Of a stretch of DNA of 64,000 bases, positions 33,598 through 63,166 are shown piece after piece. The notes under the pieces were generated by a model. It was not told where the DNA came from. It ran no database searches and saw only the letters and a list, made by a program, of their open reading frames with translations. The position numbers were made by a program, and so were the translations under genes. This DNA is from Patescibacteria group bacterium (GTDB taxonomy: Bacteria > Patescibacteriota > Patescibacteriia > UBA1558 > GWA2-36-10), in assembly GCA_028718865.1 (NCBI GenBank), contig JAQUKX010000005.1:368-64367 (forward strand), written 5' to 3'. Position 1 is the stretch's first letter. Every line of letters begins with the position of its first letter.

Positions 33598-33602
33598 TTT
33601 AA

Positions 33603-34274: not shown

Positions 34275-34293
34275 AAAAATACTTGACTAAGGA

Positions 34294-35700: not shown

Positions 35701-35706
35701 AAAAAC

Positions 35707-36834
35707 TTAAAAAATATCTCTCATTGCCAGCCCCAGGCAAACTGACATGCGCGGCCCCATCTCGTCCAGTATCGGCTTGAGATCCAAAGGATAAATTATC
35801 CTGTCCCAAGGATCGCCGATAATTACCGAGATATTGAGCAGTTCTGACAAATACTGGGGAAAATTGGGCAAAAAAGAGCTGCCGCCGGTAAGAATTATTT
35901 TTTCTATACTGCCGGTATCCTGCTTGTGATAGCGGTCAAAGACATAGCGAATTTCATTGATAATGGCATCAAGCGATTTTTTTATAACATCAGGTATTTT
36001 CTGATCACCACCAGCTAAAGACAAGCCAAAATCACGCTTAAATTGCTCAGCCCTGTCTTTACTGACATTAAGGCTGTTCATAATAGTAGTAGTGATAGAC
36101 TCGCCTCCCATATCCAGCCCCTGGTTAATAATAGGCACACCTTCTTCAATAATACAGATATCCGTTGTAGTCGAGCCCACATCCACTATCATCACCGTTG
36201 ACCTGTCGTTGCCCAAAAGCGAACGAGCTAAGGCAAAAGACTCTGTTTCTAGACTAAGCAAATTGAGCTTGGCTCGCTTGAAGATATCAATATAGCGAGC
36301 TACTAGATTTTTGGGAGCGGCTGTGAGCAAAATACGGTAATTCTGCTCATCCTGTTTGACATTAGCCTTGCCGGCGCTATCTGACTGAATGTCTCCATTT
36401 TTTTTATCAGCTTCTTTTTTATCTTTTTTCAGTCCTTGACTTTTACGTTTAGCACCAATTATCTTCCAATCCAAAATAGTTTCCTCCAAAGGCACGGGGA
36501 TGAATTTTTTGGCCTCCCATTTGATAGCCGAAGCCAAATCCTTTTTGGGCATGGGAGGCAAGTTGATAATAAAATTAAAAACCGAAAAAGTCGGCAAAGC
36601 CGCTACTGCCGATCTGGTCTGAGTATTGGCTTTTTTGGTTATTTCATTAATATAACGGGCTATTTTTTCATTATTTTGTTCTATATCGCCACCCAAGACA
36701 TTGACTGCCGCATCGGCATAGCCGTAGGTCTTAAGACGAGCCTGATTTTTGAAGTTTTCAAGCTCAACAATCTTGATACTGGAGGTACCAATATCCACTC
36801 CCAAATAACTAGTAGAACTGGAAAATAATCCCAT
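35707..36834 (-). CDS. pilM: actin-like ATPase
   Basis: YLGVDIGTSSIKIVEL ... DVGSTTTDICII ... ILTGGSS are the actin/PilM motifs. Confidence 0.85.
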   Translation of the reverse strand: MGLFSSSTSYLGVDIGTSSIKIVELENFKNQARLKTYGYADAAVNVLGGDIEQNNEKIARYINEITKKANTQTRSAVAALPTFSVFNFIINLPPMPKKDLASAIKWEAKKFIPVPLEETILDWKIIGAKRKSQGLKKDKKEADKKNGDIQSDSAGKANVKQDEQNYRILLTAAPKNLVARYIDIFKRAKLNLLSLETESFALARSLLGNDRSTVMIVDVGSTTTDICIIEEGVPIINQGLDMGGESITTTIMNSLNVSKDRAEQFKRDFGLSLAGGDQKIPDVIKKSLDAIINEIRYVFDRYHKQDTGSIEKIILTGGSSFLPNFPQYLSELLNISVIIGDPWDRIIYPLDLKPILDEMGPRMSVCLGLAMRDIF

Positions 36835-36904
36835 ATTTATTATTTTGCTAAAAACTTAAATAACACTTGATATTATAACACATTTGACAATCTTAGCCAA
36901 AGAA

Positions 36905-46263: not shown

Positions 46264-46339
46264 GGTCCCGTAGCTCAACGGATAGAGCGTTTGGTTGCGG
46301 TCCAAAAGGTTGCAGGTTCGATTCCTGCCGGGATCACCA
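46264..46339 (+). tRNA. tRNA-Arg (GCG), CCA encoded
   Basis: 76-nt cloverleaf. Acceptor GGTCCCG/CGGGATC with a G:U. Anticodon loop TTGCGGT. T-loop TTCGATT. Confidence 0.75.
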
Positions 46340-46388
46340 CACTGCGCCCCTCATTTCATTCGGAGCTTCGTGTGGTTTTATAACCACA
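46336..46388. repeat. left copy of a roughly 50-bp direct repeat (its partner is at 50063-50113)
   Basis: accacactgcgcccctcatttcattcggagcttcgtgtggttttataaccaca is about 78% identical to gccacactacgctactcattatattcgtagcttcgtatggcttgtagccaca, by hand alignment. Confidence 0.55.
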
Positions 46389-46920: not shown

Positions 46921-47970
46921 TTAGGGGGGGGTAGTATAATAGTCTTGTATGAAAGAATTTCTTAGATCATTACTAAAGTCATAAGCATTAGCGTGACTCA
47001 AAACACCCAAGTAAGATTGTAATGATTGTTCGTAAGTATATTTAGTTATTTTATCATCTTCATATTCATTTCTACGCAATTCTAATTTCCTTATCATCCT
47101 TTTCTTAGTATTAGCTCTAATGAGTTTGTGGTAAGGGAAAATAATATGACCCAGAAAATCAATACCTTGGCTATATTTACGAATAGATACTTTCTTAGGA
47201 TGTAATTGTAATAATAATTCATTAGATAAAAATTTAGATATTGGCTTCAAAATATTTTTTAAATACTCTTTGTCATCAGAAACAATTATAAAATCATCAG
47301 TATATCTGACATAATGCTTAACTTTCAATTCTTGTTTTATATACTGATCTAGCTTGTTCATGTAAATATTAGCGAAAATTTGTGAAGTGAGATTACCAAT
47401 CGGTAAGCCTTTCTTTTGAAATATATTAGAAGAATAACTATTAATTATATCTTCCATTAACCACATGGTATCTTTATCTTTTATACGTTTACAAAGAACA
47501 ACTAAAAGAACATAATGATCCACTGAATCAAAGAATTTCTTTATATCACATTTTAAAGCATAACAATTCCTTGTATTATTTTGACTTACTTTTCTTAATA
47601 TTTTAGCTAGAGTGTCCACTCCTTTGTGGCTACCTTTACCTTTACGGCAAGAAAATGAATTAGGAATAAAAGTCGGTTCAAATATTGGCAGCAATATTTT
47701 ATAAACAGCGTGGTGTAAAATTCTATCTCTAACCTTTGCCTTATGAATATGTCTAAGCTTAGGATCAGTAATATAGAAACCAGTATATGAACCATGACTA
47801 TAACTTTTATTGTCTAATTCCCTATGTAATTTAAAAACGTTTTCCTCTAAATTAAACTCAAACTTTTGGACATCAATTTTATGCCTTTTGTCTTTTTTAA
47901 ACTCATCCCAAGCTAAAAATAAATTTTTCAGTGAAATAATATCTTTAAATATATCATTATAAACTTTCAT
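46921..47970 (-). CDS. diversity-generating retroelement (DGR) reverse transcriptase
   Basis: 349-aa RT with no maturase or endonuclease domain. Conserved N-terminus (LFLAWDEFKKDKRHK...FEFNLEENVFKLHRELDNKSY). Motif 4 LPIGNLTSQIFANIYMNKLD carries the DGR-specific [ILV]GxxxSQ. Catalytic YTDDFII. A cognate TR/VR pair is adjacent. Confidence 0.9.
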   Translation of the reverse strand: MKVYNDIFKDIISLKNLFLAWDEFKKDKRHKIDVQKFEFNLEENVFKLHRELDNKSYSHGSYTGFYITDPKLRHIHKAKVRDRILHHAVYKILLPIFEPTFIPNSFSCRKGKGSHKGVDTLAKILRKVSQNNTRNCYALKCDIKKFFDSVDHYVLLVVLCKRIKDKDTMWLMEDIINSYSSNIFQKKGLPIGNLTSQIFANIYMNKLDQYIKQELKVKHYVRYTDDFIIVSDDKEYLKNILKPISKFLSNELLLQLHPKKVSIRKYSQGIDFLGHIIFPYHKLIRANTKKRMIRKLELRRNEYEDDKITKYTYEQSLQSYLGVLSHANAYDFSNDLRNSFIQDYYTTPP

Positions 47971-48321
47971 ATGGACAATTTTGACATTCCAATTTTTAAG
48001 AAAAGCTACGATTTATACAAAACACTACATGAGTATAGAAACTCAATTCCCAAAAAAGATAGATTTACTATTTTTGAGCGGTGTGAGAATATCTTACTTG
48101 ATATCATAGCCAACATACTTTTGGCTTCCAGTCAAAAACCTAAAGATAAATTACCAACTCTAAACAATATAAGTTTAAAATTAAACCTATTAAGAGTATT
48201 TATTCGTCTGCTCAAGGACATCAAAGCCATAGACAATAAGAAATATGTTAGTCTGGAAAGCATGGTTGATGAAATTGGTAAAATGCTTGGTGGCTGGATA
48301 AGATCTACTAAGATCAGATAA
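47971..48321 (+). CDS. avd: Avd (accessory variability determinant; four-helix-bundle family), encoded divergently from the RT
   Basis: 116-aa basic protein. C-terminal EIGKMLGGWIRS resembles the BPP-1 Avd ...EVGRILGSWIAR as I recall it. YDLYKTLHEY...IPKKDRFTIFERCENILLDIIANILLA fits the four-helix-bundle family pattern. Its ATG directly abuts the RT ATG in the palindrome CATATG at 47968-47973. Confidence 0.8.
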   Translation: MDNFDIPIFKKSYDLYKTLHEYRNSIPKKDRFTIFERCENILLDIIANILLASSQKPKDKLPTLNNISLKLNLLRVFIRLLKDIKAIDNKKYVSLESMVDEIGKMLGGWIRSTKIR

Positions 48322-48357
48322 ACGAAAAGGTGCTAAAAAGCACCCTTTCGTAACAAT
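48322..48357. other. hairpin immediately 3' of the TR (in TR sense); also usable as a terminator for avd
   Basis: acgaaaaggtgc-taaaaa-gcaccctttcgt, a 12-bp stem with one mismatch. Confidence 0.5.
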
Positions 48358-48366
48358 GAGAAGATA

Positions 48367-48495
48367 CTTCGGGACGAAGGCCGACACCGAGCCATAGTTG
48401 TCGTTGGCATTGTTGACCCAGTTGGTGTTGAACTTGACCTTGCCGTCGTTGAAGTTGAAGATTGGCGCGTTGTTGAACTGACCATCGGCATCCGG
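48367..48495 (-). repeat. DGR template repeat (TR); the adenine-bearing sense strand is the minus strand, the same orientation as the RT
   Basis: 129 bp aligning to 48905-49033. In the TR frame it encodes PDADGQFNNAPIFNFNDGKVKFNTNWVNNANDNYGSVSAFVP. It is AAC/AAT (Asn)-rich, the classic TR signature. Confidence 0.85.
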
Positions 48496-48833
48496 ATTAT
48501 TACTTCTGTCCATCTTTTATCACCAAGTATTGGGCTTTACTTCTTATTGGCTATAAGACTATATTCTCTTTACTTTGAATTTTATTTGGCAGCAACTAAT
48601 AAAGTATCTGCACCAGACAAAAGCAAGCAGTATCTCCTCAAAATAACACTCTCTTAAAAATCTTGATTTTTAAGACTCTGGTTATATATCTTTAAAGAGA
48701 AAGTCAGGCGATGGCAATTCTTAAAATGCCATTCACTAGCCCAACTCAAAAATATTATAACAAATTATTTAAACAAAATGAAAAGAGGGTTACCCACGGT
48801 ACGTGGTACCTATGGATAACCCCCCTGTGGCGA

Positions 48834-48852
48834 GTCACCGCTACGCGGTGAC
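48834..48852. other. GC-rich hairpin about 50 bp downstream of the VR
   Basis: gtcaccgc-tac-gcggtgac, a perfect 8-bp stem. Confidence 0.5.
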
Positions 48853-48898
48853 AAGGTCTCAAAGGCTCAAAAGAACTCAAGCCTTCAAGAGTTCAAGG

Positions 48899-49780
48899 CT
48901 AGGACTGCGGGACGAAGGCCGACACCGAGCCACAGCGGTCGCCGGCACCGTTGACCCAGCGGGTGCTGACCTCGACCTCGCCGCCGCTGAAGTGGAAGAA
49001 CGGCGCGCTGCGGAACTGACCATCGGCATCCGGAGCGAACTCGTCGCCCGCACAGTCGATCCAGAGATCGTCGTAGTGCTTGAGACGCTCGGGGTGGGTG
49101 AGCAGCATGATGGCGATCTCGTAGGCACCGAGACCGAACTCGTCGGAGGTGAAGACCTCGCGGGCTCGGCGGACGGAACTTCCACGGTGACGGAGACCGA
49201 ACTGGACCGGAACGAGCAGGATGTCGTGCTCCGATTGCTGGTCGCCGATGAGATCCAGCGCGTGGTTGGTGCGAGCCGATCGCTGCAGGTACTCGGGGCC
49301 GAGCTGGCCCTCGCGGTAGTTGTGGAACTTGCCGCCACGGGTCTGCTTGATCAGATCGAGGACGATCTGGACAGCCTCGCCGTAGGTCAGCGCGATCTTC
49401 TCCCACCTCGGGATGGCGAACCAGCCCTCGGCACCATCCGGCAGAACCTGACCAGCAACGTCCTCGTCCACCCGCATCGGGATGCCCGAGAAGAACTGGC
49501 GCAGGATCTTGCACTGCTCGGTGATCGGCTTGACCACGTAGCCCGACAGGTAGCCGTACTTGGAGGAGACCTCCTCGTCGGCGTACTGGTTGGAAACCGA
49601 GAGTTCCCTGATGGCCGCGATGATGCTGGCCTGGAACTCGCCGCCTCTCGAGATGAGCTTTTGGATGCGATCCTTGTCCAGGTTCGCTTCCTGAAGTGCC
49701 CGCTGAGCTGCGTCTTCGACGAAACGCTTGTATTGCTTGAGTTGACCGGACGTGATCGACGTGTTGGTCGTCATCGTCAT
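48899..49780 (-). CDS. DGR target protein (VR at the C-terminus; no signal peptide) with anomalously high GC
   Basis: RBS AGGAGG upstream of ATGACGATGACG. 293 aa ending ...PDADGQFRSAPFFHFSGGEVEVSTRWVNGAGDRCGSVSAFVPQS, collinear with the TR translation. Codon third positions are overwhelmingly G/C, unlike all neighbouring genes. Confidence 0.8.
   Translation of the reverse strand: MTMTTNTSITSGQLKQYKRFVEDAAQRALQEANLDKDRIQKLISRGGEFQASIIAAIRELSVSNQYADEEVSSKYGYLSGYVVKPITEQCKILRQFFSGIPMRVDEDVAGQVLPDGAEGWFAIPRWEKIALTYGEAVQIVLDLIKQTRGGKFHNYREGQLGPEYLQRSARTNHALDLIGDQQSEHDILLVPVQFGLRHRGSSVRRAREVFTSDEFGLGAYEIAIMLLTHPERLKHYDDLWIDCAGDEFAPDADGQFRSAPFFHFSGGEVEVSTRWVNGAGDRCGSVSAFVPQS
48905..49033 (-). repeat. 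DGR variable repeat (VR)
   Basis: By hand alignment to the TR there are 21 mismatches over 129 bp, 20 of them where the TR sense strand has A (T on the + strand). The 3' end carries an identical GC-rich IMH-like segment ggctcggtgtcggccttcgtccc, then cag in the VR versus aag in the TR. Confidence 0.85.
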
Positions 49781-50035: not shown

Positions 50036-50066
50036 CGAGGATGTTCGAATCCCTCCCTCTCCGCCA
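50036..50066 (+). pseudogene. 3' fragment of tRNA-Ser (duplicate of the last about 24 nt of tRNA-Ser(GCT) including CCA); candidate att-site remnant
   Basis: cgaggatgttcgaatccctccctctccgcca. The last 24 nt are identical to 46195-46218, and no 5' half is present. Confidence 0.6.
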
Positions 50067-50113
50067 CACTACGCTACTCATTATATTCGTAGCTTCGTAT
50101 GGCTTGTAGCCAC
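50063..50113. repeat. right copy of the roughly 50-bp direct repeat (partner at 46336-46388)
   Basis: See the left copy. Both contain a small hairpin (tgtggtt..aaccaca / tggcttgtagcca). Confidence 0.55.
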
Positions 50114-52219: not shown

Positions 52220-54292
52220 ATGCCAAAATTTAGCCGACAAGACCATCTGACACGTCTCCACTCCATTGCTCTGAAGCTGGAGCCGGATTTTAAAAAGCTG
52301 AAAATAAAAAATATCGGCGATCTGCTCTGGCATTTTCCCAATCGCTACGAGGACTTGAGCCAAATAAAAAAAATAAGCGAGCTCAAAGAAAATGAACTGA
52401 TTTCCCTCAAAGTAAAAATAGACAGCCTCAAAAGCTACCGTTCTTGGCGCAAAAAAATATTTATCACTCAGCTAAGCGCCAGCGACTCCAGCGGCAAAAT
52501 TCAAGCTAGCTGGTTTGGTCAAAAATTCATCAGCCAAACTTTAAAGATAGGCGACGAAATTTATCTAAGCGGTAAAGCTCAAAAAAAAGGAAATATCTGG
52601 ACTTTCACCAGTCCAAATTATGAAAAAGTAAAATATAACCCTCTCCACAGCGCCCGACTAGTGCCGATTTATCCTCTCAGTGGCCAAATCAGCCAAAAGC
52701 AACTGCGGTTTTTGATGGATAGAGCCCTGCAGCTGACGCCGCCGCTGGCTGACCGCCTGCCGGCAGAAATAATCAAGGCTGAAAATTTTCCCGATATCAA
52801 TTCTTCTTTGCAGGAAATTCATTTTCCTCAAAATGAAGAAAAATTAGCCTCCGCCACTGCTCGGCTAAAATTCCAAGAACTTTTTTACCTGCAATGCAAA
52901 TACCAGCTGGCCAAAAAACAATACCAGAGCCTGCCCAGTTACTCGCTGTCTCTCAATCAAGAACTGCTCAACAAAATTCTCCAACAACTGCCTTTTGTCC
53001 TTACTCTTGACCAGCAAAAAGCCCTGTATGATATTTTGGCTGATATCAGACAAAATAAGCCAATGAATAGACTACTGGAAGGCGATGTTGGGTCAGGCAA
53101 AACAATCGTGGCTTTTCTAGCTGCATTCAACACGGTTTCTTTGGGACACCAAGCAACGCTGATGGCGCCCACTGAAATACTGGCCCGCCAGCATTTTGAC
53201 AATACTCTCAAAATTTTGCCGGCAAAATTCCGCCGAGAAATCGCCCTTTATACTCGCAGTCAGATTTTATCCGGCCAAAACAAAAAGCTGAGCAAAAAAG
53301 AAATAAACGAAAAAATAAAAAACAGGAAGATAAATTTTGTTATTGGCACCCACTCTCTTATCCAAGAAGCAGTGGCTTTTGATAAATTGGCACTGGTAAT
53401 AATTGACGAGCAGCACCGCTTCGGCGTCAGGCAAAGAAAAGCCCTCAAAGAAAAAAATCTAAATAAAAAAGTCCCTCACCTGCTGTCTATGACTGCTACG
53501 CCCATTCCTCGCACTCTGGCGCTCACGCTATACGGCGATTTGGACATTTCCCTGATAAAAACCAAGCCCGCCGGCCGGCAAAAAATAAAAACTTTTCTGG
53601 TGCCGGAAGAAAAAAGAGTCGCTGCCTATGATTTTTTACGGCAAAAAATCCAGACGGGCGGTCAAGCTTTTGTCATTTGCCCTTTGATAGAAGACAGCGA
53701 CAAGCTGGGACTAAAGTCCGTCAAAAAAGAATACAAAAAATTAAATCAAACTGTTTTTCCTGACTTAGAAATAAGAATGCTCCACGGCAAGCTCAAAGCT
53801 CAAGAAAAAGAAAAAATAATGACTGACTTTAAGGCCGGCAAATTTCCCATTCTAGTTGCCAGTTCCGTAGTGGAAGTAGGAGTAGATATTCCTCAAGCTT
53901 CTTTGATGCTGATAGAAAGTGCCGAAAGATTTGGCTTGTCTCAGCTTCATCAATTTCGTGGTCGCATAGGTCGCAATAATCAAGAAAGTTTTTGTCTGCT
54001 CTTTACCAGCGACAATTCCCAGCTGAATAAGGAAAGGCTCAAGGCCTTGGTTAAAAATGATGATGGTTTTGAGCTAGCGCAAATTGATCTGGAACTAAGA
54101 GGATCAGGAGAAATCTTTGGCCATAAGCAAAGTGGCTTGATAAAATTAAAAATCGCCCGCCTAACTGATCTTGAGCTAATCAAAAAAGCCCAAAACTGGG
54201 CCAAAAAAGTTCTAGCTAATAAAAAATATCTGGAACAGGATAATTTTCAAAAAATTATCCGCCAGTTAAAACAGGAAATGCATTTGGAATAG
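52220..54292 (+). CDS. recG: ATP-dependent DNA helicase RecG
   Basis: Wedge and OB domains, helicase motifs (GDVGSGKT, DEQHRFG) and a RecG C-terminus. Confidence 0.9.
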   Translation: MPKFSRQDHLTRLHSIALKLEPDFKKLKIKNIGDLLWHFPNRYEDLSQIKKISELKENELISLKVKIDSLKSYRSWRKKIFITQLSASDSSGKIQASWFGQKFISQTLKIGDEIYLSGKAQKKGNIWTFTSPNYEKVKYNPLHSARLVPIYPLSGQISQKQLRFLMDRALQLTPPLADRLPAEIIKAENFPDINSSLQEIHFPQNEEKLASATARLKFQELFYLQCKYQLAKKQYQSLPSYSLSLNQELLNKILQQLPFVLTLDQQKALYDILADIRQNKPMNRLLEGDVGSGKTIVAFLAAFNTVSLGHQATLMAPTEILARQHFDNTLKILPAKFRREIALYTRSQILSGQNKKLSKKEINEKIKNRKINFVIGTHSLIQEAVAFDKLALVIIDEQHRFGVRQRKALKEKNLNKKVPHLLSMTATPIPRTLALTLYGDLDISLIKTKPAGRQKIKTFLVPEEKRVAAYDFLRQKIQTGGQAFVICPLIEDSDKLGLKSVKKEYKKLNQTVFPDLEIRMLHGKLKAQEKEKIMTDFKAGKFPILVASSVVEVGVDIPQASLMLIESAERFGLSQLHQFRGRIGRNNQESFCLLFTSDNSQLNKERLKALVKNDDGFELAQIDLELRGSGEIFGHKQSGLIKLKIARLTDLELIKKAQNWAKKVLANKKYLEQDNFQKIIRQLKQEMHLE

Positions 54293-54321: not shown

Positions 54322-55050
54322 TTATCGAAATCTACTACCATATCTTAATTCATTTGAAACACAAGTACAATCAATTGACTCGCCTTGATCTGATCTAGAA
54401 ATCATATATTCCATAGTACATCTCTCATAAGTAGTTCCGCCTTTGGGTATAACACAAGATGCATCAGAACGACTACATCTAAGTCCCCCCGGACAAGTCC
54501 TATCGGTTCCCTCATAAACTACTGTGAAAGCGCCCGATGATCCGCAATCATGATTTTGAGCCTCTTGCATACACGAACCTAGTAAATCTAAAGGAATATT
54601 TACTCTGGGAACATTAACAACTTCCAATCCAGTAAATGTAACCAAACGGTTACTTATCTGGGCCAAAAGCAAATAACTACCAAAAAGCAAAATCAATCCT
54701 ACGACTGCTCCTTGGATAGTGTCTTTGGCTGCAGAGATTTTCTCCGGGTTACCGGCGGCCATCAGCCATTTCCAGCCAGCCAAGACCAGCATAAACATGG
54801 CTACCAATCCGGCTACAGTTGCTCCATACTGATAAATAGCAATAATATAATTGGCCAAAGTACTGCCGTCTCCCATCACTCTATCAACCGAAAAACCCGG
54901 AATAGGAATTTGGGGAGTGAAAGGTATGCCTACTCGTTCTCCAGATTCATTAAGAATAACATCTTGAGCCAAAACATTACTTATAGAAAAAGTAAAAAAC
55001 GAAAAAAAACCTAGAAACAAAACTGGCAAAAAATATCTTTTTTTCTTCAT
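54322..55050 (-). CDS. VirB2/TrbC-like T4SS pilin-type protein with a cysteine-rich C-terminal extension
   Basis: Signal peptide, then two hydrophobic helices separated by a short loop (ANYIIAIYQYGATVAGLVAMFMLVLAGWKWLMAAGNPEKISAAKDTIQGAVVGLILLFGSYLLLAQI), then an eight-Cys domain. Confidence 0.45.
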   Translation of the reverse strand: MKKKRYFLPVLFLGFFSFFTFSISNVLAQDVILNESGERVGIPFTPQIPIPGFSVDRVMGDGSTLANYIIAIYQYGATVAGLVAMFMLVLAGWKWLMAAGNPEKISAAKDTIQGAVVGLILLFGSYLLLAQISNRLVTFTGLEVVNVPRVNIPLDLLGSCMQEAQNHDCGSSGAFTVVYEGTDRTCPGGLRCSRSDASCVIPKGGTTYERCTMEYMISRSDQGESIDCTCVSNELRYGSRFR

Positions 55051-55059
55051 AAAATATAT

Positions 55060-56283
55060 TTATCTTAATCTAATACTCTGCAAAGTGCCTGTTTTGGCGT
55101 CAGTGAAATAAAGTAGTGAACCGTCAGCTGAAAGAAATAAATTATAAGCGCTATAACCGCCTCTGGCTCCTACTGGTGAAGCCAGCATAGTTCTTTGTCC
55201 ACTGGTTAAGTTGACACTATAAAAATTATCCGGATAATCATGCGCAATTTCCGGGAAAAGCCCGGCTCCTCGCGGCAGTCCTTGAGGTACAGCGCAATAA
55301 AGATTATTTTCTCCGGCAAAAGTGCATTTTTCCGGCCAAGTAGCCAGATTCAGGGAAACTTTGAGATCGCCTAGTTGGCTGGTATTGCCCTTGGTAATCC
55401 ATAAATTAGGGTTGTAGTTATTTTGCTCATTATAAACGCTATAAAGCAAAGAATTGCCCTGCGGCGACCAGCTAGAAGTAAAGCCCGCGCCGCTAACAGC
55501 AAAAGACTTGAAATTTTCTCCCCTCATGCCTAGAGGGTATACTTCCTGCGCATCCAGGCCTGTCGCCTTGCTGTGCAAAGCCACTACTTGATTGTCCGGT
55601 GAAAAACCCACTTGGACAGTATGGGCATTTTCCCCCAAGGGCTCCACCAACCGCATACCCGAGCCGTCTTCATTGGCAACTATCAGCCAATTGTAATCGG
55701 CTGATTGCCCTTGCCATTTAGCGGCGATTTGAGTGCCACTAGAATTAAAAGAAAAATTTTCCAGCTCTCTGGGCAGAGTCACTTGCTTTTGCGTGCGAAA
55801 ATCATACAAAATTTTCATTCCATCAGGGTATTCCAAAATCGCTTTATCGCCATAATTATCCCAAGTTACTTTTTCCACCTGAAAAAACTTCCTGTCCGAT
55901 AAAGAAACCAAATTGCCATTTTCATCCAGCCGGAAAAACTGCTGCTTATCAGCATCATAATATTGCAAGCCGGCAGAAGTAGGCAGTAGTCCTTTGACCG
56001 TATTATTGACAACTTCCTTGACTTCCGTCAAACCGCCGCTGGCTACTGGCGATACCTGGTCTCGGATAAGCGCCTGCCAAGGCAAACCTTGATCGCTTGT
56101 GCCAGTATCCTGACCAATGATAGCCACATCCCCCGATCCGATAATAGGTATATCGCCAGCACTGAAATCACCAGGAGCATCTGTTTCCGTAACGCTGCGA
56201 AAAAACACCCAATAAAGAGAAAAACCTACAAAAACAACAAAAACGAGAAAGAGTACGGTCAAAATAATTTTTTTTAAATTCAT
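55060..56283 (-). CDS. membrane-anchored beta-propeller (TolB/PD40-like repeat) protein
   Basis: N-terminal TM helix. Repeated FSPDNQ/WSPQGN-type PD40-like motifs. Confidence 0.5.
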   Translation of the reverse strand: MNLKKIILTVLFLVFVVFVGFSLYWVFFRSVTETDAPGDFSAGDIPIIGSGDVAIIGQDTGTSDQGLPWQALIRDQVSPVASGGLTEVKEVVNNTVKGLLPTSAGLQYYDADKQQFFRLDENGNLVSLSDRKFFQVEKVTWDNYGDKAILEYPDGMKILYDFRTQKQVTLPRELENFSFNSSGTQIAAKWQGQSADYNWLIVANEDGSGMRLVEPLGENAHTVQVGFSPDNQVVALHSKATGLDAQEVYPLGMRGENFKSFAVSGAGFTSSWSPQGNSLLYSVYNEQNNYNPNLWITKGNTSQLGDLKVSLNLATWPEKCTFAGENNLYCAVPQGLPRGAGLFPEIAHDYPDNFYSVNLTSGQRTMLASPVGARGGYSAYNLFLSADGSLLYFTDAKTGTLQSIRLR

Positions 56284-56312
56284 GATATTTTATAAAATAT
56301 TTTTATTTGAAA

Positions 56313-56837
56313 TTAAGTGCCGATAATATTACCGATAATATTGCCAAACCAGTCTTGCAACAATTGGCCAAAAATTGCCAAAAAATCAGCTGGGCTTAAA
56401 GCCATGCGCAAAATTATCATCAATAAACCAAAAAACAGAATAAAAGTAAGTAAAATTATCAAAGAAACCACCCCCCAAACTATCTGCTCCCAAAGCTCCA
56501 AAGGAGGCACACCTGATACTTTGAGCCAATTTCCCAAAATCATCTGAGCGGTCATAATCAAATACGCTACTATCAACCCAACCAGACTAGCGGCAAAGGC
56601 CCAAGATACCCGACGCAACATCATCTGCCTAGCTCTCTGCTTAGCCAGCTCGGCTGCCTGTCTAAAAGCTTCCTGCTTGATATCTTCTGCACTGGCAATG
56701 GCTTTTTTCCTAGCCAAATTTTGAGCTATGTTAAGAGCTCGAGAATTAGCGGCTTCATTTTGACCGCTTTCTTCCTCTTCTTCCGGCTCATAGCCACCAT
56801 AATATTCTCTTTCAGCTGTACTAGCAACTGCTGACAT
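56313..56837 (-). CDS. hypothetical two-TM membrane protein with an acidic N-terminus
   Basis: 174 aa, hydrophobic C-terminal half. Confidence 0.4.
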   Translation of the reverse strand: MSAVASTAEREYYGGYEPEEEEESGQNEAANSRALNIAQNLARKKAIASAEDIKQEAFRQAAELAKQRARQMMLRRVSWAFAASLVGLIVAYLIMTAQMILGNWLKVSGVPPLELWEQIVWGVVSLIILLTFILFFGLLMIILRMALSPADFLAIFGQLLQDWFGNIIGNIIGT

Positions 56838-56868
56838 AAAAAATCAATAATTAACTATTATAAATTAT

Positions 56869-57438
56869 TTATTTCCAATTAGCGGCGCTCACCAGCCAAC
56901 TATCACCGCTATTTACCAGCGATATTTCAATATCCTGATAAAATACTTCTTCAGGCTGGGCGCCTTGTTTTTTTATTCTCTGAGTCTTGACCAAAACCCT
57001 AGCTTGAGAAGGCCCTAGGCTAGCAATACTTGACGACAAGCTCTTGGTGCTGATGCCAAAAAACTCTTCCGACTGATAATTTATTTCTAAATTGTTCAAA
57101 TAATTAACCATGACCGATGAACTAAGAGGCAAAAGCTCTCGCAAATTGGCGCCGGGATTATCACTTGACCAAGAGCCAAAACGCTCGGCAAAATTCTTGG
57201 CCAGCTCGCTGACGGCAAACTCGGTGTTGGTCTGAGCCGGCGGCAAGCTAGGATCAAACTCAAATGGCACGCTAGGCGCTTCAAATATTGGCTGTTCTTC
57301 TTCAACTGGCGCCATGGGCTGGCTCCTATCCGACAAGCGCCAAATAAGAAATAAAACTCCCAAGATTACCAAAATAGCTATGGCGATAATAATTATTTTT
57401 TTTCTTCGGTCAATTTGCATACTATTATTCTTAAACAA
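56869..57438 (-). CDS. membrane-anchored hypothetical protein
   Basis: 189 aa with a single N-terminal TM helix. Confidence 0.4.
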   Translation of the reverse strand: MFKNNSMQIDRRKKIIIIAIAILVILGVLFLIWRLSDRSQPMAPVEEEQPIFEAPSVPFEFDPSLPPAQTNTEFAVSELAKNFAERFGSWSSDNPGANLRELLPLSSSVMVNYLNNLEINYQSEEFFGISTKSLSSSIASLGPSQARVLVKTQRIKKQGAQPEEVFYQDIEISLVNSGDSWLVSAANWK

Positions 57439-57452
57439 ATTTTTTAAAAATA

Positions 57453-59348
57453 TTAAAGCTTCTCTGCTTCAGCCATTTGCTGCTCTTCAAACTCTTTTTT
57501 GGCTTCTTCAATTTCCAAAAGCTGGCGAGGATCAGAAGTAATTACTTGATGCTCGGTATAAGAAGCCTGGACTTTGATAGCCGCGTGCTTGGCGCCGGCA
57601 AAAAATATGCCTTCGCCCTGGCCGGCTTCCAAAAGTAAATACTTTTCCCCTTCCGTGAGCATAAAAGTCTTCTGCACCAGATTAATAGCCGCCGGCGTTT
57701 GCTTAAGCAGAAGCTGCAAAGAACAATTATTGACAATGGCATTGCCGTAAGCGGAAGTCAAAAAGTCATTGACATCCTGGGTAATGGTGGTGACCCCCAA
57801 ATAATATTTGCGGCAGCGCTTGACCAAAGCATACATAAACTTGGCACTATCTTCATGGCGCATCATAATCCAAGCTTCATCTACCACCAGCAAACGGCGC
57901 TTCAACTCACTGCGGATTATATTCCAAATGTAATTCATAATCACATACATGGCAATAGGCCGGAGCTCGTCCTCCAAGTCTCTGATACTGAAAACAATCA
58001 GTTGATTGTCCACTTTGATATTGGTCGGATTATTAAACAAGCCGGCAAAAGTACCTTCGGTATATTTCTTGATTCTTAGAGCCATATCCTCGCCGCCCTC
58101 CATGCCCAAGAGCACTTCTTCCAAATCCGACATCAGAGGCGGCTCAACATTGGTCAAATCACTGGCGGCAGTGATATCCTTTTTAGCATAAGTTTCTATC
58201 AAAGCTCTATCCAAAAGAGAGTCTTCGGCATTGGTAATATCGCCTATCATCAACCGAATCAATCCTTTGAGAGTAATAACCGCGCTACGCAATATATCCT
58301 CGGGCTTGGATTCTCCGCCCACTCCCCGAGGCAAATCAAAAGGATTAAGCTTACTCTCGGAATTAAGGGAAAGATTGATGTAAGCGCCATTGACGGCTTC
58401 CGACAAATGCCGATATTCATTTTCTGGGTCTATGACTATCACATCAGTACCCAGCATCATGGTGCGCAAAATTTCCAGCTTGATAGCATAGCTTTTGCCG
58501 GCTCCTGAGGTAGCAAACACCACCATATTGGCGTTTTGCAAACTAAAACGGTCAAAAAGGATCAAGCTGTTGTTGTGACGATTGATGCCGTAGAGTATGC
58601 CCTGGTCAGAAGTCAGCTCAGAAGAAACAAAAGGAAAAGAAGAAGCAATCGGCGAACTATTCATGTTGGTGGAAATGCCCAGCTCATCATTGCCCATCGG
58701 TAAAGTAGAGTTGAATCCTTGCTCAGCCTGAAACAAAGCGCGGCGGGAATAAATCAATTGCATACCAAGAAGATTTTCCACCCTATCGCTGGCCAAATCC
58801 AGCTCCTCTTTGGTTTTGGCGTAGATAGTGACATAAAGAGAAAATTGAAAAAATTTTTCCGTGCCTTGGGTCAAATCATCTCTCAATCTTTCTATATCAC
58901 GCAAAGCGGTTTCGGCAATAGGATCGCGCGGCGCGCCTTTTTCATGGTCAGCCATAATTTGCGCTTCCATATTACCGACCTTGTTTCTCAATTGTTTCAA
59001 AACCGTGGTGACATCCATTGGATAAAAAAACATGGTAATATCCAAAGTCATGCTTTCGTTGATAATCGGAGCAAACCAGCCGATAGTCAGATAACGAGGA
59101 TAAGTCATCACGAACAAGGTCCGGACATAGAGATCATTGAGGCGCAAAAAATTATTTTCTATTTTCAGAGATGAGGGGGCGATAACGTCTCGTACCGATA
59201 CTACTCCTTCTCGAAAAACTTTTTCCGCTTCCAAAATCTCCTTTTGGCGACCAATATCCTGAGCCAAGTTTTGAAGCTCGGCTTTTTGAGCTGCCTCCTT
59301 AGCTGAAGGCTGTTTTTCTACTTGTTTTATTTTTTTAAATCCAAACAT
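57453..59348 (-). CDS. VirB4/TrbE-family T4SS ATPase, C-terminal ATPase part
   Basis: Walker A TSGAGKSY and Walker B LLVVDEAW. VirB4/CagE-like. Confidence 0.85.
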   Translation of the reverse strand: MFGFKKIKQVEKQPSAKEAAQKAELQNLAQDIGRQKEILEAEKVFREGVVSVRDVIAPSSLKIENNFLRLNDLYVRTLFVMTYPRYLTIGWFAPIINESMTLDITMFFYPMDVTTVLKQLRNKVGNMEAQIMADHEKGAPRDPIAETALRDIERLRDDLTQGTEKFFQFSLYVTIYAKTKEELDLASDRVENLLGMQLIYSRRALFQAEQGFNSTLPMGNDELGISTNMNSSPIASSFPFVSSELTSDQGILYGINRHNNSLILFDRFSLQNANMVVFATSGAGKSYAIKLEILRTMMLGTDVIVIDPENEYRHLSEAVNGAYINLSLNSESKLNPFDLPRGVGGESKPEDILRSAVITLKGLIRLMIGDITNAEDSLLDRALIETYAKKDITAASDLTNVEPPLMSDLEEVLLGMEGGEDMALRIKKYTEGTFAGLFNNPTNIKVDNQLIVFSIRDLEDELRPIAMYVIMNYIWNIIRSELKRRLLVVDEAWIMMRHEDSAKFMYALVKRCRKYYLGVTTITQDVNDFLTSAYGNAIVNNCSLQLLLKQTPAAINLVQKTFMLTEGEKYLLLEAGQGEGIFFAGAKHAAIKVQASYTEHQVITSDPRQLLEIEEAKKEFEEQQMAEAEKL

Positions 59349-60022
59349 TATGTTTCCACATTTAATTTATTGACCGCTTCTAGCCCCTGACGCTGGTAAA
59401 GGTCGGGATTATAACTGTTGTAATAAAGCTCTATCAAAGCCTGCGTCTCCAGACGCTCATTGCGTAGCCCTAAGCTGTTGAGACCAGCCGAGACAAAACT
59501 GCAGCGTTTGTCCAGCTGCTGGCCGAACTCCTCAAAGCGCTTACGGCTCAAGGTCACTACCTTGGCAGCGGAAAAAACCGAAGAAAACCTGGCAACAAAA
59601 CTGCGATTTTTATCACTGACAGCATTATAGGGCACAATAACATAAAATCGTTTGCTCATAATTTTCTCCAAAGTCAAAAGCTCTTTGACAAATTCCCGAT
59701 AATCAGCGGTCTGCATTCGCAATAATTCATTAGTCTGCTCTCTTTCCACTTTTTTCAAACGATCCAAATACTCATCAATATCCAAAGGCCGAGACTGGAT
59801 AACTATCTGCAAAGGATAATCCACGGAATTAAGAAAATTGACATAATTGGCAATAATCGCCTGCTGCTCATCCCCTGATTTGAGATCAAAATTAATAGAA
59901 GAAACCAAAAGCACGCCGCGGACACTGCCATCATTTAAAAGCACTAGATCATCTCTGATTTCAGCGATGTTGAGAAATTTTTGGGTTGAATTACTTGGTC
60001 CTTTCTTTTTTTTATTTTTCAT
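59348..60022 (-). CDS. VirB4 N-terminal domain protein (split VirB4; TAATG stop/start overlap with the ATPase part)
   Basis: LNIAEIRDDLVLLNDGSVRGVLLVSSINFDLKSGDEQQAI matches the conserved VirB4 N-terminal segment. Its stop codon overlaps the downstream ATG by 1 nt. Confidence 0.6.
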   Translation of the reverse strand: MKNKKKKGPSNSTQKFLNIAEIRDDLVLLNDGSVRGVLLVSSINFDLKSGDEQQAIIANYVNFLNSVDYPLQIVIQSRPLDIDEYLDRLKKVEREQTNELLRMQTADYREFVKELLTLEKIMSKRFYVIVPYNAVSDKNRSFVARFSSVFSAAKVVTLSRKRFEEFGQQLDKRCSFVSAGLNSLGLRNERLETQALIELYYNSYNPDLYQRQGLEAVNKLNVET

Positions 60023-60035
60023 AAAAATATCTCTG

Positions 60036-60494
60036 CTAAATTCTCAAATTATTTTCCTTGTTGGCATCACCTTCTCCTTTGTAAGCTCCGCCCGTGTCAA
60101 TAATCAAGGATAATTCCGATAATTTCTTGCTGGAAACCATTTTTTTTCTAGGCAAGACTTCTTCAGCGGCTGCTCCTTCGTCCTTGCTCTTGAAAACTTC
60201 TATTTTTATATACTCTTTGCGCCAGACTCGGACATTGGGCTTTTTCAAAGTTTCTATAAAATTAAGGGCAAAAAGATGAAAAGGAGCGCCATTGACTTTG
60301 TAAAAAGCAAAAACTATAGTCAGCACTACTGTTAAAAAAGCTTGCAAAAGAAAAAGCGAAAAGTCCGATAATTTGTAGGCCAAAAATATAAATAAGCCGC
60401 CGACCATGACAATAATAAACTGCCGGATGGTTATCGGTCCCCAGATTTTATTTTCTGCATCAATAAACTGTGGCACTATAAATCTATTTTCCAT
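60036..60494 (-). CDS. PrgI/VirB3-like small membrane protein
   Basis: FIVPQFIDAENKIWGPITIRQFIIVMVGGLFIF resembles the PrgI family. Two TM helices. Confidence 0.5.
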   Translation of the reverse strand: MENRFIVPQFIDAENKIWGPITIRQFIIVMVGGLFIFLAYKLSDFSLFLLQAFLTVVLTIVFAFYKVNGAPFHLFALNFIETLKKPNVRVWRKEYIKIEVFKSKDEGAAAEEVLPRKKMVSSKKLSELSLIIDTGGAYKGEGDANKENNLRI

Positions 60495-60500
60495 GCTATT

Positions 60501-61895
60501 TTAAAATCTCAATTTTTTATTTAAATCGGCAATAGCGGAAAATTCTTCTATGGCCAAATGACTGGCATCGGCCTGCTGACGCTGAGCCAAAAATTCCTCA
60601 ATTGCCTGCCCTTGACCCATGCTTTTGGCGCCTAAGGACAAATAAAGCTGGTGCAAAGGACTGTTTCTCCACGCAGCAATGCCTTGGGCTTTTTTGGTAA
60701 AAGAATCTTTTTCCAATAAATTTATCTTGGCCAAAATCTTTTCTACTCTTTCCTGAGGACTCTGACCCAAGCGACGAAAAGCAGTCAAATCCAAAGAGCC
60801 TATTTCCATCACTGGCCCGGTCAAAACCGCCTTGGGCGCCGGCCGACTGACAGAACTTGCCTTGGCCAAAACATCAGCCAGCTGTTTTTTAGCCGGCATT
60901 GCTTGCGGCCGCAATACTTTTGGCAAATTTTCTTTATCATTATCGCTGACTGTTTTTTCTTGAGGTAGGGAAAAATCTTCTTTGGCGGACGCTTGGCTTT
61001 TTAAAGGCTGAAGCGGCTGCTCAAGCGCTGGGCTTGGCTCGTCTTTTTTTGTTTCTTCTTTACCAGCTTGATCTTTTTTATCAAGTTTTTCCGCTAATGC
61101 CTCTGTCTTTTTTTCCGGCCCTAAAGAATCTTGCTTTGACTCATTTGCGTCTTGAGTTTTGGCAATATCATCCGGCAAAGAAAAATTCGGCTTTTGAGTA
61201 AGGGCCAATCCGGCCAGAGCATTGTCTATTTCCGCTTGAGGAGGCTGGCTCAAATCCTCGTTTTCTTCCAAAACAATGGTTTTTAATTTCAGCTTGTCGT
61301 CTTTTATCTCAGGCGCCGTGACCGGTGCTGGCTGCCAAACTACCAAACCGCCGGTTGCCGATATTTTTTCCTTGATGCCCTTGGCCACTGACATAATAGC
61401 GTCAATGGTTTTTTCCGGCAGCAGTCGGCCATCTGACTTGACCTTTTCACTGATAAAAATTCTGGTGCTAATGGAATTTTTCCGGTTGCGCAAAAAGTTA
61501 AAAATAGCCTCAATAAATTTTTTTCTATCCTCGCCGGCTAAATTCAAATTCTGTTTTTCTATTATCTTGGCCGAAATTTTTTCCACTGAATATTTTTTGC
61601 TCTCATCTTGAGGAAGGTGTCCAGCCAAAACCTCCAAATCCTTTTTGTCTTCCGGATGAAAGTGAAAATCAGCTTTATCGCTTGATTTACCCCTAAATTT
61701 CGCGTAATTATCCTCCCGAAAGTGCTCCTCAGTTGCTGTTTTTGGCAAATCAACCCTATCTGAAGCTGCGCTTGAGGCCGGCGTTTGCTTCTTTTGATAG
61801 TATGACAAAAGGCCTTGCTCATCTTTTAGAAGCAAATTTTCTTTCCAATTGACAGCAACCGGCGCACTGATTGTCTGATTGTCTATATCTGGCAT
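60501..61895 (-). CDS. hypothetical low-complexity protein encoded with the T4SS-like genes
   Basis: 464 aa, K/E/P-rich with a more ordered C-terminal region. No TM helix. Confidence 0.4.
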   Translation of the reverse strand: MPDIDNQTISAPVAVNWKENLLLKDEQGLLSYYQKKQTPASSAASDRVDLPKTATEEHFREDNYAKFRGKSSDKADFHFHPEDKKDLEVLAGHLPQDESKKYSVEKISAKIIEKQNLNLAGEDRKKFIEAIFNFLRNRKNSISTRIFISEKVKSDGRLLPEKTIDAIMSVAKGIKEKISATGGLVVWQPAPVTAPEIKDDKLKLKTIVLEENEDLSQPPQAEIDNALAGLALTQKPNFSLPDDIAKTQDANESKQDSLGPEKKTEALAEKLDKKDQAGKEETKKDEPSPALEQPLQPLKSQASAKEDFSLPQEKTVSDNDKENLPKVLRPQAMPAKKQLADVLAKASSVSRPAPKAVLTGPVMEIGSLDLTAFRRLGQSPQERVEKILAKINLLEKDSFTKKAQGIAAWRNSPLHQLYLSLGAKSMGQGQAIEEFLAQRQQADASHLAIEEFSAIADLNKKLRF

Positions 61896-61950
61896 TTTTA
61901 CGATTTTATCTTGCTATATTATAACATATTTAATCCAATTGAGCCAATAA

Positions 61951-61980
61951 TAAAACCCGGCTTTTGGGCCGGGCTTTTTC
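61951..61980. terminator. bidirectional intrinsic terminator downstream of efp
   Basis: cccggc-ttttgg-gccggg hairpin with flanking A and T runs. Confidence 0.6.
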
Positions 61981-61991: not shown

Positions 61992-62549
61992 TTAAGCTCT
62001 AGCTACATATTCTCCGGTTTCAGTATTGACTATTATTTGGTCTCCGTCTTTGATAAACATCGGCGTCCTTATTTCCAAACCGTTTTCCAAAACAACTGTT
62101 TTAGTGGCCGCACCAGCGCTATTGCCTTTTACTCCTTCGGGAGCCGACGCTACTTTCAAAATCACTTTGGGAGGCAGGGCAATTGCTACTGGCTGCTGAT
62201 TAAACACCAAAACATTGACTATCTGTCCTTCTTTGAGATATTTGACTGCCTCTCCTATTAGTTCTTGAGAAAACTGAAACTGCTCAAAATCCTGATTATC
62301 CATAAAAAAATAAAGATCATTTTCCCGATAGAGAAAATTTGCCTGACGATAGCTCAAATCGGCCATCACTATATCATCAGAGCCGGAAAAAGTCTTTTCC
62401 AAAGTATTGCCGCTGACCAAATTCTTAAGCTTGGTCTTGATGACCGCTCCTCCTCTGGCCACCTTGATATGCTGAGCAAAAACTACCTGATAGGGTTCAT
62501 CTTCTATATTGATTACCCTGCCCAATTTCAAATCATTCAGCCCAGACAT
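61992..62549 (-). CDS. efp: elongation factor P
   Basis: 185 aa; KLGRVINIEDEPYQVV...VKTKLKNLVSGN pattern. Confidence 0.93.
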   Translation of the reverse strand: MSGLNDLKLGRVINIEDEPYQVVFAQHIKVARGGAVIKTKLKNLVSGNTLEKTFSGSDDIVMADLSYRQANFLYRENDLYFFMDNQDFEQFQFSQELIGEAVKYLKEGQIVNVLVFNQQPVAIALPPKVILKVASAPEGVKGNSAGAATKTVVLENGLEIRTPMFIKDGDQIIVNTETGEYVARA

Positions 62550-62818: not shown

Positions 62819-63166
62819 CTATAAACTCTTTTTAAAAGCTGTTATTTTTTTAATAAGAATTTCTGCTTCTCTATAAAGAAATACAAATTCTTTCGGCGAT
62901 ATAAATCCTCTATCTCTCGCTATGTACAACTCCGAAACTAATTCCGCATTGGATCTAATAGCATAATTAAGGAAAACTCTAAAATCATTTTTACTGCTAC
63001 TACCTGATCCCTCTGCTATATTGGCTGAGATAGAAACTACTGCCCTTTTTATTTGGCTCGACAAGCCAAATAATTAATTTTTAGGAAATTTATCAGTAAT
63101 ATCATATATTTTCCCTGCATAATTAACTGACAATTTCCAAATTTCTAAATGTTCAAATCTAAACAT
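62819..63166 (-). pseudogene. four-helix-bundle protein (Avd/'23S rRNA IVS protein' family) interrupted by an in-frame TAA at 63074-63076
   Basis: Hand translation of the minus strand from the ATG at 63166 gives MFRFEHLEIWKLSVNYAGKIYDITDKFPKN-stop-LFGLSSQIKRAVVSISANIAEGSGSSSKNDFRVFLNYAIRSNAELV..., which matches the family consensus on both sides of the stop. The ORF track only sees the TTG-initiated C-terminal 81 aa. Confidence 0.6.

Follow-up and report, generated by a model that had tools for sequence, protein, structure and literature searches.

Gene content and organization of the cluster

A 64,000-nucleotide stretch of contig JAQUKX010000005.1 from a Patescibacteria group bacterium (assembly GCA_028718865.1, positions 368 to 64,367; hereafter the window) contains a cluster of genes related to type IV secretion systems (T4SSs). 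The cluster consists of eight tightly packed open reading frames (ORFs) on the minus strand, designated g1 to g8 from the 5' end, that extend from position 61895 to 54322 and occupy 7.6 kb (Table 1). All eight had been listed in a preliminary description of the sequence, and each was present where that description placed it. Successive genes are separated by 6, 13, -1, 14, 31, 29, and 9 nt, and the eight are predicted to constitute one operon. The cluster is preceded by efp, with ssb 1.3 kb upstream, and is followed by a convergent recG. The 96-bp gap between efp and g1 contains a hairpin and a promoter-like site, the latter being the sole such pair outside coding sequence. This site was recognized by its match to the consensus alone, and such a match is not evidence of function.

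The products of g2, g3, and g4 correspond to PrgI/VirB3, TrsD, and VirB4, respectively. In the VirB4-family ATPase, the Walker A (SGAGKS) and Walker B (VVDEAW) motifs are intact, and the P-loop_TraG model was matched with an E-value of 1e-28. The ATPase shares 80-86% identity with its counterparts in the first three syntenic relatives (L001, L003, and L005), in which the motifs are invariant. The g3 protein matched VirB4 models at their N-terminal parts only: positions 93-237 of VirB4_plasma (E 7e-13) and 20-124 of CD1110. It also matched the TrsD family (E 9e-9), with the TrsD match and the VirB4 N-terminal matches both falling below the curated cutoffs. Orthologs of g3 carry PF26593 (TraC-like). 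A profile search with TrsD against PDB sequences returned no match; the kinship of TrsD with the VirB4 N-domain is thus drawn from NCBIfam and Pfam matches and the literature, and not from a solved structure.

Together, g3 and g4 tile one VirB4 model of NCBIfam. Their junction reads ...ACATAATGTTT..., such that the TAA stop codon and the ATG start codon share one base (TAATG); this coupling, noted previously, was read from the sequence directly. The division of VirB4 had been described as atypical. In related loci (see below), TrsD and VirB4 are encoded by separate, adjacent ORFs in 82/82 cases in which both were detected, and the two form a conserved pair. Frames and stop contexts vary among these loci, the TAATG overlap being common to 21 of them. 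Based on these 82 loci and the 2,272 TrsD homologs reported elsewhere (PMC12102498), the split is neither a frameshift nor an oddity of this lineage but a real, ancestral gene boundary. A likely true artifact looks different: the ATPase of locus L006 is broken into pieces of 514 and 123 amino acids (aa), whereas its near-identical counterpart in L005 is unbroken.

The next two products, g5 and g6, had been described only as small membrane proteins. Both are indeed membrane proteins, but the 189-aa g5 is also PrgL/VirB8-like: a 37-sequence profile matched PDB 7aed (PrgL) with an E-value of 1e-4, the match covering 128 profile positions (53-180). PrgL is the VirB8-like protein of pCF10. The C-terminal domain of g5, of ~130 aa, is predicted to face outward. 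For g6, Pfam, NCBIfam, and profile searches against the PDB yielded no meaningful match, and scanning the whole family against Pfam gave generic membrane-protein noise. This poorly conserved protein is syntenic in 33 loci and is the sole candidate in the cluster for a VirB6-like channel role.

Searched alone, g7 gave weak PD40/TolB matches. With a 50-sequence profile, the E-values were 1e-11 for designed propellers and between 4e-10 and 1e-5 for structures of TolB, which bears out the TolB-like beta-propeller proposed previously. The propeller is predicted to be extracellular. TolB proper was considered and rejected: the TIGR02800 score was 13 bits versus a cutoff of 343, and the N-terminus is a transmembrane (TM) anchor rather than the TolB N-domain. 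We therefore consider g7 to have the TolB fold without being TolB of the Tol-Pal system. According to the literature, the organism is a monoderm.

The first gene, g1, matched nothing in Pfam or NCBIfam, and scanning all members of its family against Pfam added no match. A profile search against PDB sequences was similarly without match, as was Foldseek against the PDB at E <1. The search for homologs found 42, for which every source name displayed was 'hypothetical protein', from Patescibacteria-group metagenome-assembled genomes (MAGs), and orthologs occupy the same position in 33 loci. The preliminary description had called this protein a low-complexity unknown. The second word stands and the first needs refining: AlphaFold2 predicted two folded domains (residues ~80-190 and 360-464), each with a predicted local distance difference test (pLDDT) score >90, joined by a disordered linker of ~170 aa.

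Table 1. Coordinates of the cluster, of other features of the window, and of hydrolase-fused pilin genes in related loci (coordinates of the latter are those of the respective locus)
Feature	Coordinates	Strand	Remarks
efp	61992-62549	-	upstream flank
Hairpin	61954-61970	-	resembles efp terminator; precedes promoter-like site
Promoter-like site	61918-61947	-	TTGGCT + 18 nt + TG-extended TATAAT; consensus scan
g1, cytoplasmic protein, 464 aa	60501-61895	-	no TM segment, no Cys; 6 nt upstream of prgI
g2, PrgI/VirB3-like membrane protein, 152 aa	60036-60494	-	two TM segments; PF12666, 38.4 bits (gathering cutoff 27)
g3, TrsD-like protein, 224 aa	59348-60022	-	soluble; homologous to VirB4 N-terminal region (NCBIfam)
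g4, VirB4-family ATPase, 631 aa	57453-59348	-	conju_CD1110, 358 bits (cutoff 325), model positions 177-729
g5, PrgL/VirB8-like bitopic protein, 189 aa	56869-57438	-	N-terminal TM segment; profile vs PDB 7aed
g6, membrane protein, 174 aa	56313-56837	-	charged N-terminal ~75 aa, then 2-3 TM segments (TM windows)
g7, membrane-anchored TolB-like (PD40) beta-propeller, 407 aa	55060-56283	-	N-terminal TM segment; profile
g8, VirB2-like T4SS pilin, 242 aa	54322-55050	-	T4SS_pilin PF18895, 30.1 bits (cutoff 26.6)
recG	52220-54292	+	convergent downstream flank
CPFC-motif protein	18575-19345	-	membrane-anchored, DsbA/thioredoxin fold; beside lgt
Type IV pilus cluster	23719-39037	-	
Two T2SSE-family ATPases	30023-33194		within type IV pilus cluster
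710-aa protein	36905-39037		34 Cys, no Pfam match; directly upstream of type IV pilus genes
676-aa ORF	3785-5815	+	UPF0004, Radical_SAM, TRAM; MiaA-like IPP transferase domain
Diversity-generating retroelement	46921-49780		
Reverse transcriptase	46921-47970	-	RVT_1; retroelement
bAvd-like accessory gene	47971-48321	+	retroelement
Template/variable repeat pair, 131 nt	48366-48496 and 48904-49034		21/22 mismatches are T on + strand of first copy (A on -)
293-aa protein	48899-49780	-	retroelement; no Pfam match; C-terminus is variable copy
Direct repeat, 63 nt	46316-46378 and 50043-50105		imperfect (73% identity)
81-aa ORF	62819-63064	-	between ssb and rpsR
Hydrolase-fused pilin, L013	4715-5947		
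Hydrolase-fused pilin, L015	14356-15396		
Hydrolase-fused pilin, L016	14441-15487		
Hydrolase-fused pilin, L017	5503-6609		
Hydrolase-fused pilin, L019	14322-15542		
Hydrolase-fused pilin, L023	14325-15395		
Hydrolase-fused pilin, L049	3665-4741		
Hydrolase-fused pilin, L037	18832-19989		
Hydrolase-fused pilins, L067, L070, L072			

Distribution and conservation of the locus

The cluster was compared with 86 loci, in which its genes were sought by an iterative hidden Markov model (HMM) search. The 80 closest genome loci came from a scan of a genome collection with VirB4 (55-89% identity), and loci were also gathered via contigs encoding pilin homologs. On these contigs, the same eight-gene order was present in independent metagenomes, with S6-SSB-S18-EF-P upstream and RecG downstream. 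Many of the 80 VirB4 loci are labelled as Patescibacteria-group MAGs, Komeilibacteria being among the closest; we take the closest loci to belong to the GTDB class ABY1. Among the 86 loci, VirB4 was detected in 85, TrsD in 82, PrgI in 76, the propeller in 70, g5 in 41, the pilin in 37, and g6 and g1 in 33 each.

The eight-gene order is kept in L001, L003, L005, and ~20 further genome loci. The full set is limited to a clade in which VirB4 is at least 74% identical, except for L037 (59%), in which all eight genes occur in a different order. In 21/21 complete loci of this clade, SSB-S18-EF-P lie upstream and a convergent RecG-DUF5673 pair downstream. Since all 21 share these flanks, the operon is considered to be inherited vertically at a fixed chromosomal site rather than carried on a mobile element. 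Versus the 21 clade members, the median identity was 82% for VirB4 (range 75-85%), 73% for TrsD, 63% for PrgI, 58% for the propeller, 46% for the pilin core, 44% for g5, 37% for g1, and 30% for g6. Conservation thus follows a steep gradient from the ATPase to the pilin tail, which is unalignable beyond the closest relatives.

The propeller is conserved beyond the clade. A homolog is encoded downstream of virB4, in the same orientation, in 70/86 loci, including clades whose VirB4 is 56-60% identical. In the more distant patescibacterial clades represented by L038, L042, L047, L053, and L059 (~11.8-14.3 kb) and by L073, L082, and L085, virB4 is again followed by the propeller gene, but the two small intervening genes are replaced, in one group by one protein of 350-435 aa with TM segments at its C-terminus and in the other by a 215-aa six-TM protein and an 840-940-aa Cys-containing protein. 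When the 10 kb around virB4 were searched with the pilin-core HMM in the more distant clades, for example in loci with Doudnabacteria or Saccharibacteria labels, no pilin was found. Several records marked 'MAG TPA_asm' (L013, L015, L019, L020, L028, L049, L070, L072, and others) are titled 'uncultured Gammaproteobacteria' or 'Bdellovibrionales'; as they have the same patescibacterial gene order, these labels are probably wrong.

The pilin and its cysteine-rich tail

The g8 protein comprises a signal peptide (residues ~1-28), a conserved FxPxIxIPG motif, a two-helix hairpin (~62-132), and a 102-aa tail. Hydropathy windows fall at residues 6-28, 69-100, and 111-134, and AlphaFold2 placed helices at 62-97 and 102-132 with a pLDDT of ~80. 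The signal peptide and the hydrophobic hairpin with its short charged loop fit the VirB2/TrbC pilin family. The Mbov_0395 pilin-like family was matched below the family cutoff (E 8e-6), and a Foldseek search of the model against the PDB returned generic helical hairpins only (best E ~1). Based on the signal peptide and the two TM helices, g8 would have the topology of VirB2, placing its C-terminus outside the cell.

The eight-cysteine tail noted in the preliminary description is statistically marked. The cysteines, at residues 160, 169, 186, 192, 199, 211, 228, and 230, all lie in the last ~85 residues. Against the mean cysteine content of the window's proteins, 0.93%, the probability of at least eight cysteines in 71 residues is ~4e-7. 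Tail statistics were calculated for 44 pilin-family proteins from related loci: the tails contain 686 cysteines in 7,826 residues and the heads 88 in 6,884. The number of cysteines was even in 36/42 tails, and the commonest form has 20 in ~200 residues, that of g8 being a short form. The spacing C-x8-CG...C-x5-C-x6-C...C-x-C, together with a conserved CT[M/I]EYM motif, recurs in unrelated pilins, for example P0109, P0081, and L026/L032.

A profile search over 1.84 billion cluster representatives identified 26,251 matches to the pilin family (E up to 1e-3), of which 446 were strong (E up to 1e-30). At least eight cysteines are present in 131/144 of the closest representatives, whose median length is 319 aa. 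Thus, the extension, previously thought atypical, is common in this pilin subfamily. Between g8 and its two closest relatives, identity is 84-86% in the pilin core and 48-52% in the tail; further out, the tail could not be aligned using BLAST.

In other relatives, the position of the tail is occupied by enzymes. Pilins of related operons are fused at the C-terminus to VanY/Peptidase_M15, lysozyme-like SLT_3, or C39-like peptidase domains (Table 1), and NlpC/P60 and 3D domains also occur at this position among relatives. Where two pilin genes occur in tandem, the first often encodes a hydrolase fusion and the second a Cys-rich tail. Comparison of these sequences indicates that the pilin extensions are modular and fast-evolving, being either Cys-rich or, in relatives, peptidoglycan hydrolases. 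Four metagenomic proteins, P0155 (618 aa), P0093 (891 aa), P0089 (609 aa), and P0123 (461 aa), have three or four separate matches each to the pilin profile and appear to contain several pilin hairpins in one polypeptide.

The window also encodes a membrane-anchored protein of the DsbA/thioredoxin fold with a CPFC motif. It resembles the MdbA-like oxidoreductase family, which is enriched in the candidate phyla radiation (CPR) (bioRxiv 10.1101/335083), and is plausible as an oxidase for secreted Cys-rich proteins such as the pilin tail. Given this protein and the predicted location of the C-terminus of g8, extracellular disulfide bonding of the tail is plausible.

Components of conjugation systems

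Thirty larger ORFs elsewhere in the window were scanned using Pfam, an approach that smaller ORFs and divergent proteins could escape. In agreement with the preliminary description, no VirD4, relaxase, VirB6, or T4SS-linked VirB11 was found among these 30. The two T2SSE-family ATPases belong to the type IV pilus cluster and not to a T4SS. The only VirD4-family matches were marginal P-loop matches inside VirB4 itself.

Relationship to known systems

Quinonero-Coronel et al. 2025 (PMC12102498) analyzed 2,474 patescibacterial virB4 genes and described a distinct Patescibacteria VirB4 clade related to the monoderm MPF-FATA class. In that study, no other associated component was as abundant as TrsD; PrgI was widespread, as were VirB2-like pilins (PF18895 among them); relaxases were very few; and coupling proteins were mostly distant from virB4. 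Homologs of PrgL/VirB8 were almost confined to the class ABY1, whose loci adjoin recG. The cluster of the window does not differ from this ABY1 arrangement in any defining feature: both are chromosomal, have TrsD and PrgI before VirB4, a PF18895 pilin nearby, a PrgL/VirB8-like homolog, and recG as neighbor, and neither has a relaxase or coupling protein nearby. The searchable text and supplements of PMC12102498 contain no mention of the TolB-like propeller, of Cys-rich or hydrolase pilin extensions, or of the 464-aa first gene. Similarly, a non-exhaustive search of the searchable literature found no description of T4SS-linked propellers or of Cys-rich or hydrolase-fused VirB2-like pilins in CPR bacteria.

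Experimental data come from Saccharibacteria. Using transposon sequencing, Wang et al. 2023 (PMC10633639) found the T4SS and pilin array of Southlakia epibionticum to be essential for epibiotic growth. A 2025 review (PMC12857230) repeats these points and speculates that the T4SS pilus is used as a conduit. In another member of the phylum, tubular structures that are possibly T4SS pili were reported at the parasite-host interface (bioRxiv 10.64898/2026.06.21.733656, a 2026 preprint). The S. epibionticum ML1 cluster (SEML1_0006-0019; PMC10633639) and that of the window both contain adjacent PrgI, TrsD-like, and VirB4 genes and PF18895 pilins, and both are without a relaxase or coupling protein. 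They differ in composition. The S. epibionticum cluster encodes six short pilins of 103-185 aa without long tails, giant VirB6-like proteins of ~1,000 aa (the closest structure match of one, SEML1_0011, being 'Type IV secretion system protein'), a lysozyme, and a 300-aa PrgI, and has no propeller in its published annotation; the window encodes one tailed pilin, a propeller, and a PrgL-like protein.

Among the MPF-FATA systems (pGO1/pSK41 trs, pCF10 prg, Clostridioides CTn CD1110, Mycoplasma integrative conjugative elements), the similarity extends from VirB4, which scored above the CD1110 cutoff, to a separate TrsD as in pGO1, the VirB3-like PrgI, the VirB8-like PrgL, and the lack of outer-membrane core components. 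Unlike these systems, the operon does not contain a coupling protein, relaxase, VirB1-type hydrolase, PrgH/VirB6, or surface adhesin, and it is not on a mobile element. Conversely, it has a VirB2-like pilin, which those systems generally lack. Like the VirB2/TrbC/TraA pilins of diderms, g8 has a signal peptide and a pair of hydrophobic helices linked by a short loop that contains lysine; a few members of its subfamily match TrbC (PF04956). Canonical diderm pilins are small, with no extra domain, and some are cyclized head-to-tail. In contrast, g8 has an additional 102-aa, 8-Cys extension, and those of its relatives reach ~350 aa.

Discussion

We interpret the cluster as a Patescibacteria-type T4SS operon, that is, a vertically inherited chromosomal derivative of the MPF-FATA class stripped of its DNA-processing parts, and place the probability of this interpretation at roughly 80%. 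The window is considered chromosomal because it encodes an aminoacyl-tRNA synthetase, GatA/B, LigA, ClpB, tmRNA, and tRNAs. A chromosomal, non-conjugative T4SS-type apparatus is supported at the level of sequence, and conjugation is unlikely. The preliminary description had proposed a minimal, non-conjugative apparatus. For the second adjective, the evidence concurs: neither relaxase nor coupling protein was found in the 64 kb, the position between efp and recG is the same in 21/21 complete relatives, and the two studies above agree (PMC12102498; PMC10633639). 'Minimal' is a relative term: the cluster has no recognizable VirB6 or VirB1. In essence, this interpretation had already been published; what is new, as far as the searchable literature shows, are details, namely, the modular pilin extensions, the VirB4-linked propeller, and the PrgL-like subunit. 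By analogy with S. epibionticum, the system most likely supports an epibiotic or parasitic interaction with a host bacterium.

In such a system, VirB4 and TrsD would dock on a membrane platform of PrgI and the VirB8-like (PrgL-like) protein. Using ATP, VirB4 would pull the two-helix pilin out of the membrane for assembly into a filament on the surface or a conduit that crosses the monoderm wall, with the anchored propeller perhaps acting as a wall-side scaffold. The C-terminal tail of the pilin would end outside the cell and be disulfide-bonded, plausibly by the CPFC-containing MdbA/DsbA-like oxidoreductase. There, the tail could provide a rapidly diversifying surface for contact with the host cell, the same position bearing peptidoglycan hydrolases in relatives. 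The role towards the host might be attachment together with protein transfer or uptake of host material.

Several points weigh against this interpretation. Pfam and NCBIfam searches of the eight cluster proteins found no VirB6/PrgH or VirB1-like hydrolase. Only 64 kb of the genome is visible, and a coupling protein or relaxase could lie elsewhere; indeed, VirD4 homologs are common in Patescibacteria genomes and usually far from virB4 (PMC12102498). All experimental data on such systems come from Saccharibacteria, whose cluster differs in composition from that of the present class. The tail of g8 was modelled at low confidence from a 13-sequence alignment, such that its fold and disulfide pattern are predicted at best. 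Finally, a pilin with an extension of 100-350 aa may be unable to polymerize.

The most probable alternative concerns the role of the pilin and does not conflict with the overall system being identified as above. It holds that the PF18895 'pilin' is not a filament subunit and that its hairpin anchors exchangeable extracellular domains at the T4SS site, for remodelling of the cell's own wall (a VirB1 substitute) or for host binding. The hydrolase domains that occur at the C-terminal position in relatives fit this idea, as do the lack of a separate VirB1-like hydrolase in the operon and the frequent pairing, in two-pilin relatives, of a hydrolase fusion with a Cys-rich second protein. Moreover, 100-350 aa per subunit would be expected to crowd a VirB2-type filament. 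However, both pilin termini face outward in solved conjugative pili, so a displayed tail is geometrically possible, and the core formed by the hairpin is conserved, with a score that exceeds the cutoff of the pilin family. The essential pilin arrays of Saccharibacteria (PMC10633639) and the tubular structures at a parasite-host interface (bioRxiv 10.64898/2026.06.21.733656) also favor filaments. Overall, the anchor function agrees with most of the data and deserves some weight, although it seems unlikely.

A machine for DNA uptake or exchange, similar to ComB or the archaeal Ced system and coupled to the neighboring recombination genes, is improbable. Its attraction lies in the neighborhood: recG is the convergent neighbor in the window and in 47 related loci, and ssb is close by. 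However, rpsF-ssb-rpsR is a standard housekeeping arrangement. VirB4 did match CedB, albeit at 57 bits, which is far below the cutoff of 700 and below the VirB4 matches; CedD scored 19 bits, and the cluster is thus not assigned to the Ced/ComB import systems. In addition, a complete type IV pilus cluster is encoded in the window, and CPR bacteria usually achieve competence by way of such pili. The proximity of comF, recG, and radA to ABY1 T4SS loci has been taken to suggest functional coordination (PMC12102498). Against this, according to PMC12857230, citing Wang 2023, S. epibionticum cells with comEC deleted were viable although no longer competent, whereas the T4SS remained essential.

An identity of the cluster as a plasmid remnant or as the transfer module of an integrative conjugative element is very improbable. 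The best VirB4 models are of conjugation and integrative-element families (CD1110 and the Mycoplasma Mbov_0397), and the pilin weakly matches a Mycoplasma pilin-like family of such elements. However, neither the cluster nor its immediate surroundings showed an integrase, a relaxase, or a coupling protein, and the guanine-plus-cytosine (GC) content of the cluster, 0.41-0.43 versus 0.32-0.48 over the window, is unremarkable. The conserved synteny argues strongly against such an origin: the housekeeping flanks are identical in all 21 complete relatives, while the core proteins are only 60-85% identical. Last, a frameshift or assembly error in a single virB4 gene, as might be suspected of two ORFs that tile one model and overlap by one base, can practically be dismissed, as the ORFs are separate in 82 loci from independent assemblies with varied frames and stop contexts, TrsD is a recognized separate gene of pGO1-type systems and Patescibacteria (PMC12102498), and the likely artifact in L006 has a different appearance.

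Within the interpretation as a Patescibacteria-type T4SS, we tentatively raise a further possibility, itself rather doubtful: the VirB2-like pilins might be modular display scaffolds, in which a T4SS-assembled hairpin carries interchangeable, rapidly diversifying extracellular modules that are either disulfide-rich binding domains (8 to 36 Cys) or peptidoglycan hydrolases. The product would be an 'armed' filament or patch able to recognize and cut the host wall, with the membrane-anchored propeller as a core partner that had escaped notice. If true, this would be a mode of T4SS-host engagement without counterpart in characterized diderm or monoderm systems.

Much of bacterial diversity belongs to the Patescibacteria, which live attached to other microbes, and no T4SS before theirs had been shown to be essential to the bacterium carrying it. 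The locus leaves that picture unchanged. It provides a compact example, eight genes in 7.6 kb at a fixed position, from a class without an experimental model. Experiments may be guided by three of its features: the pilin tail evolves far faster than the motor, the tail is exchanged for wall-degrading enzymes in relatives, and the TolB-like propeller and the PrgL-like protein accompany the ATPase across distant clades.

Other features of the window

The type IV pilus cluster encodes PilM, a PilN-like protein, PilB (580 aa), a PilT-like ATPase (350 aa), PilC, a prepilin peptidase, three pilins with the N-methyl motif, and a PilX-like protein; the 710-aa Cys-containing protein is encoded next to it (Table 1). 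The diversity-generating retroelement consists of the reverse transcriptase, the bAvd-like accessory gene, the repeat pair, and the 293-aa protein; the divergent orientation of the first two is unusual. The 63-nt direct repeat brackets this block and a high-GC stretch at 48-50 kb. It comprises the 3' end of a tRNA-Arg and downstream sequence and could be an integration scar.

The 676-aa ORF combines MiaB-like domains with a MiaA-like domain and appears to be a fusion of two consecutive tRNA-A37 modification enzymes. Finally, the 81-aa ORF separates ssb from rpsR in the window, the two genes being directly adjacent in L001, L003, and L005. By eye, its product resembles the four-helix-bundle '23S rRNA intervening sequence protein' family, of which it is a candidate member.

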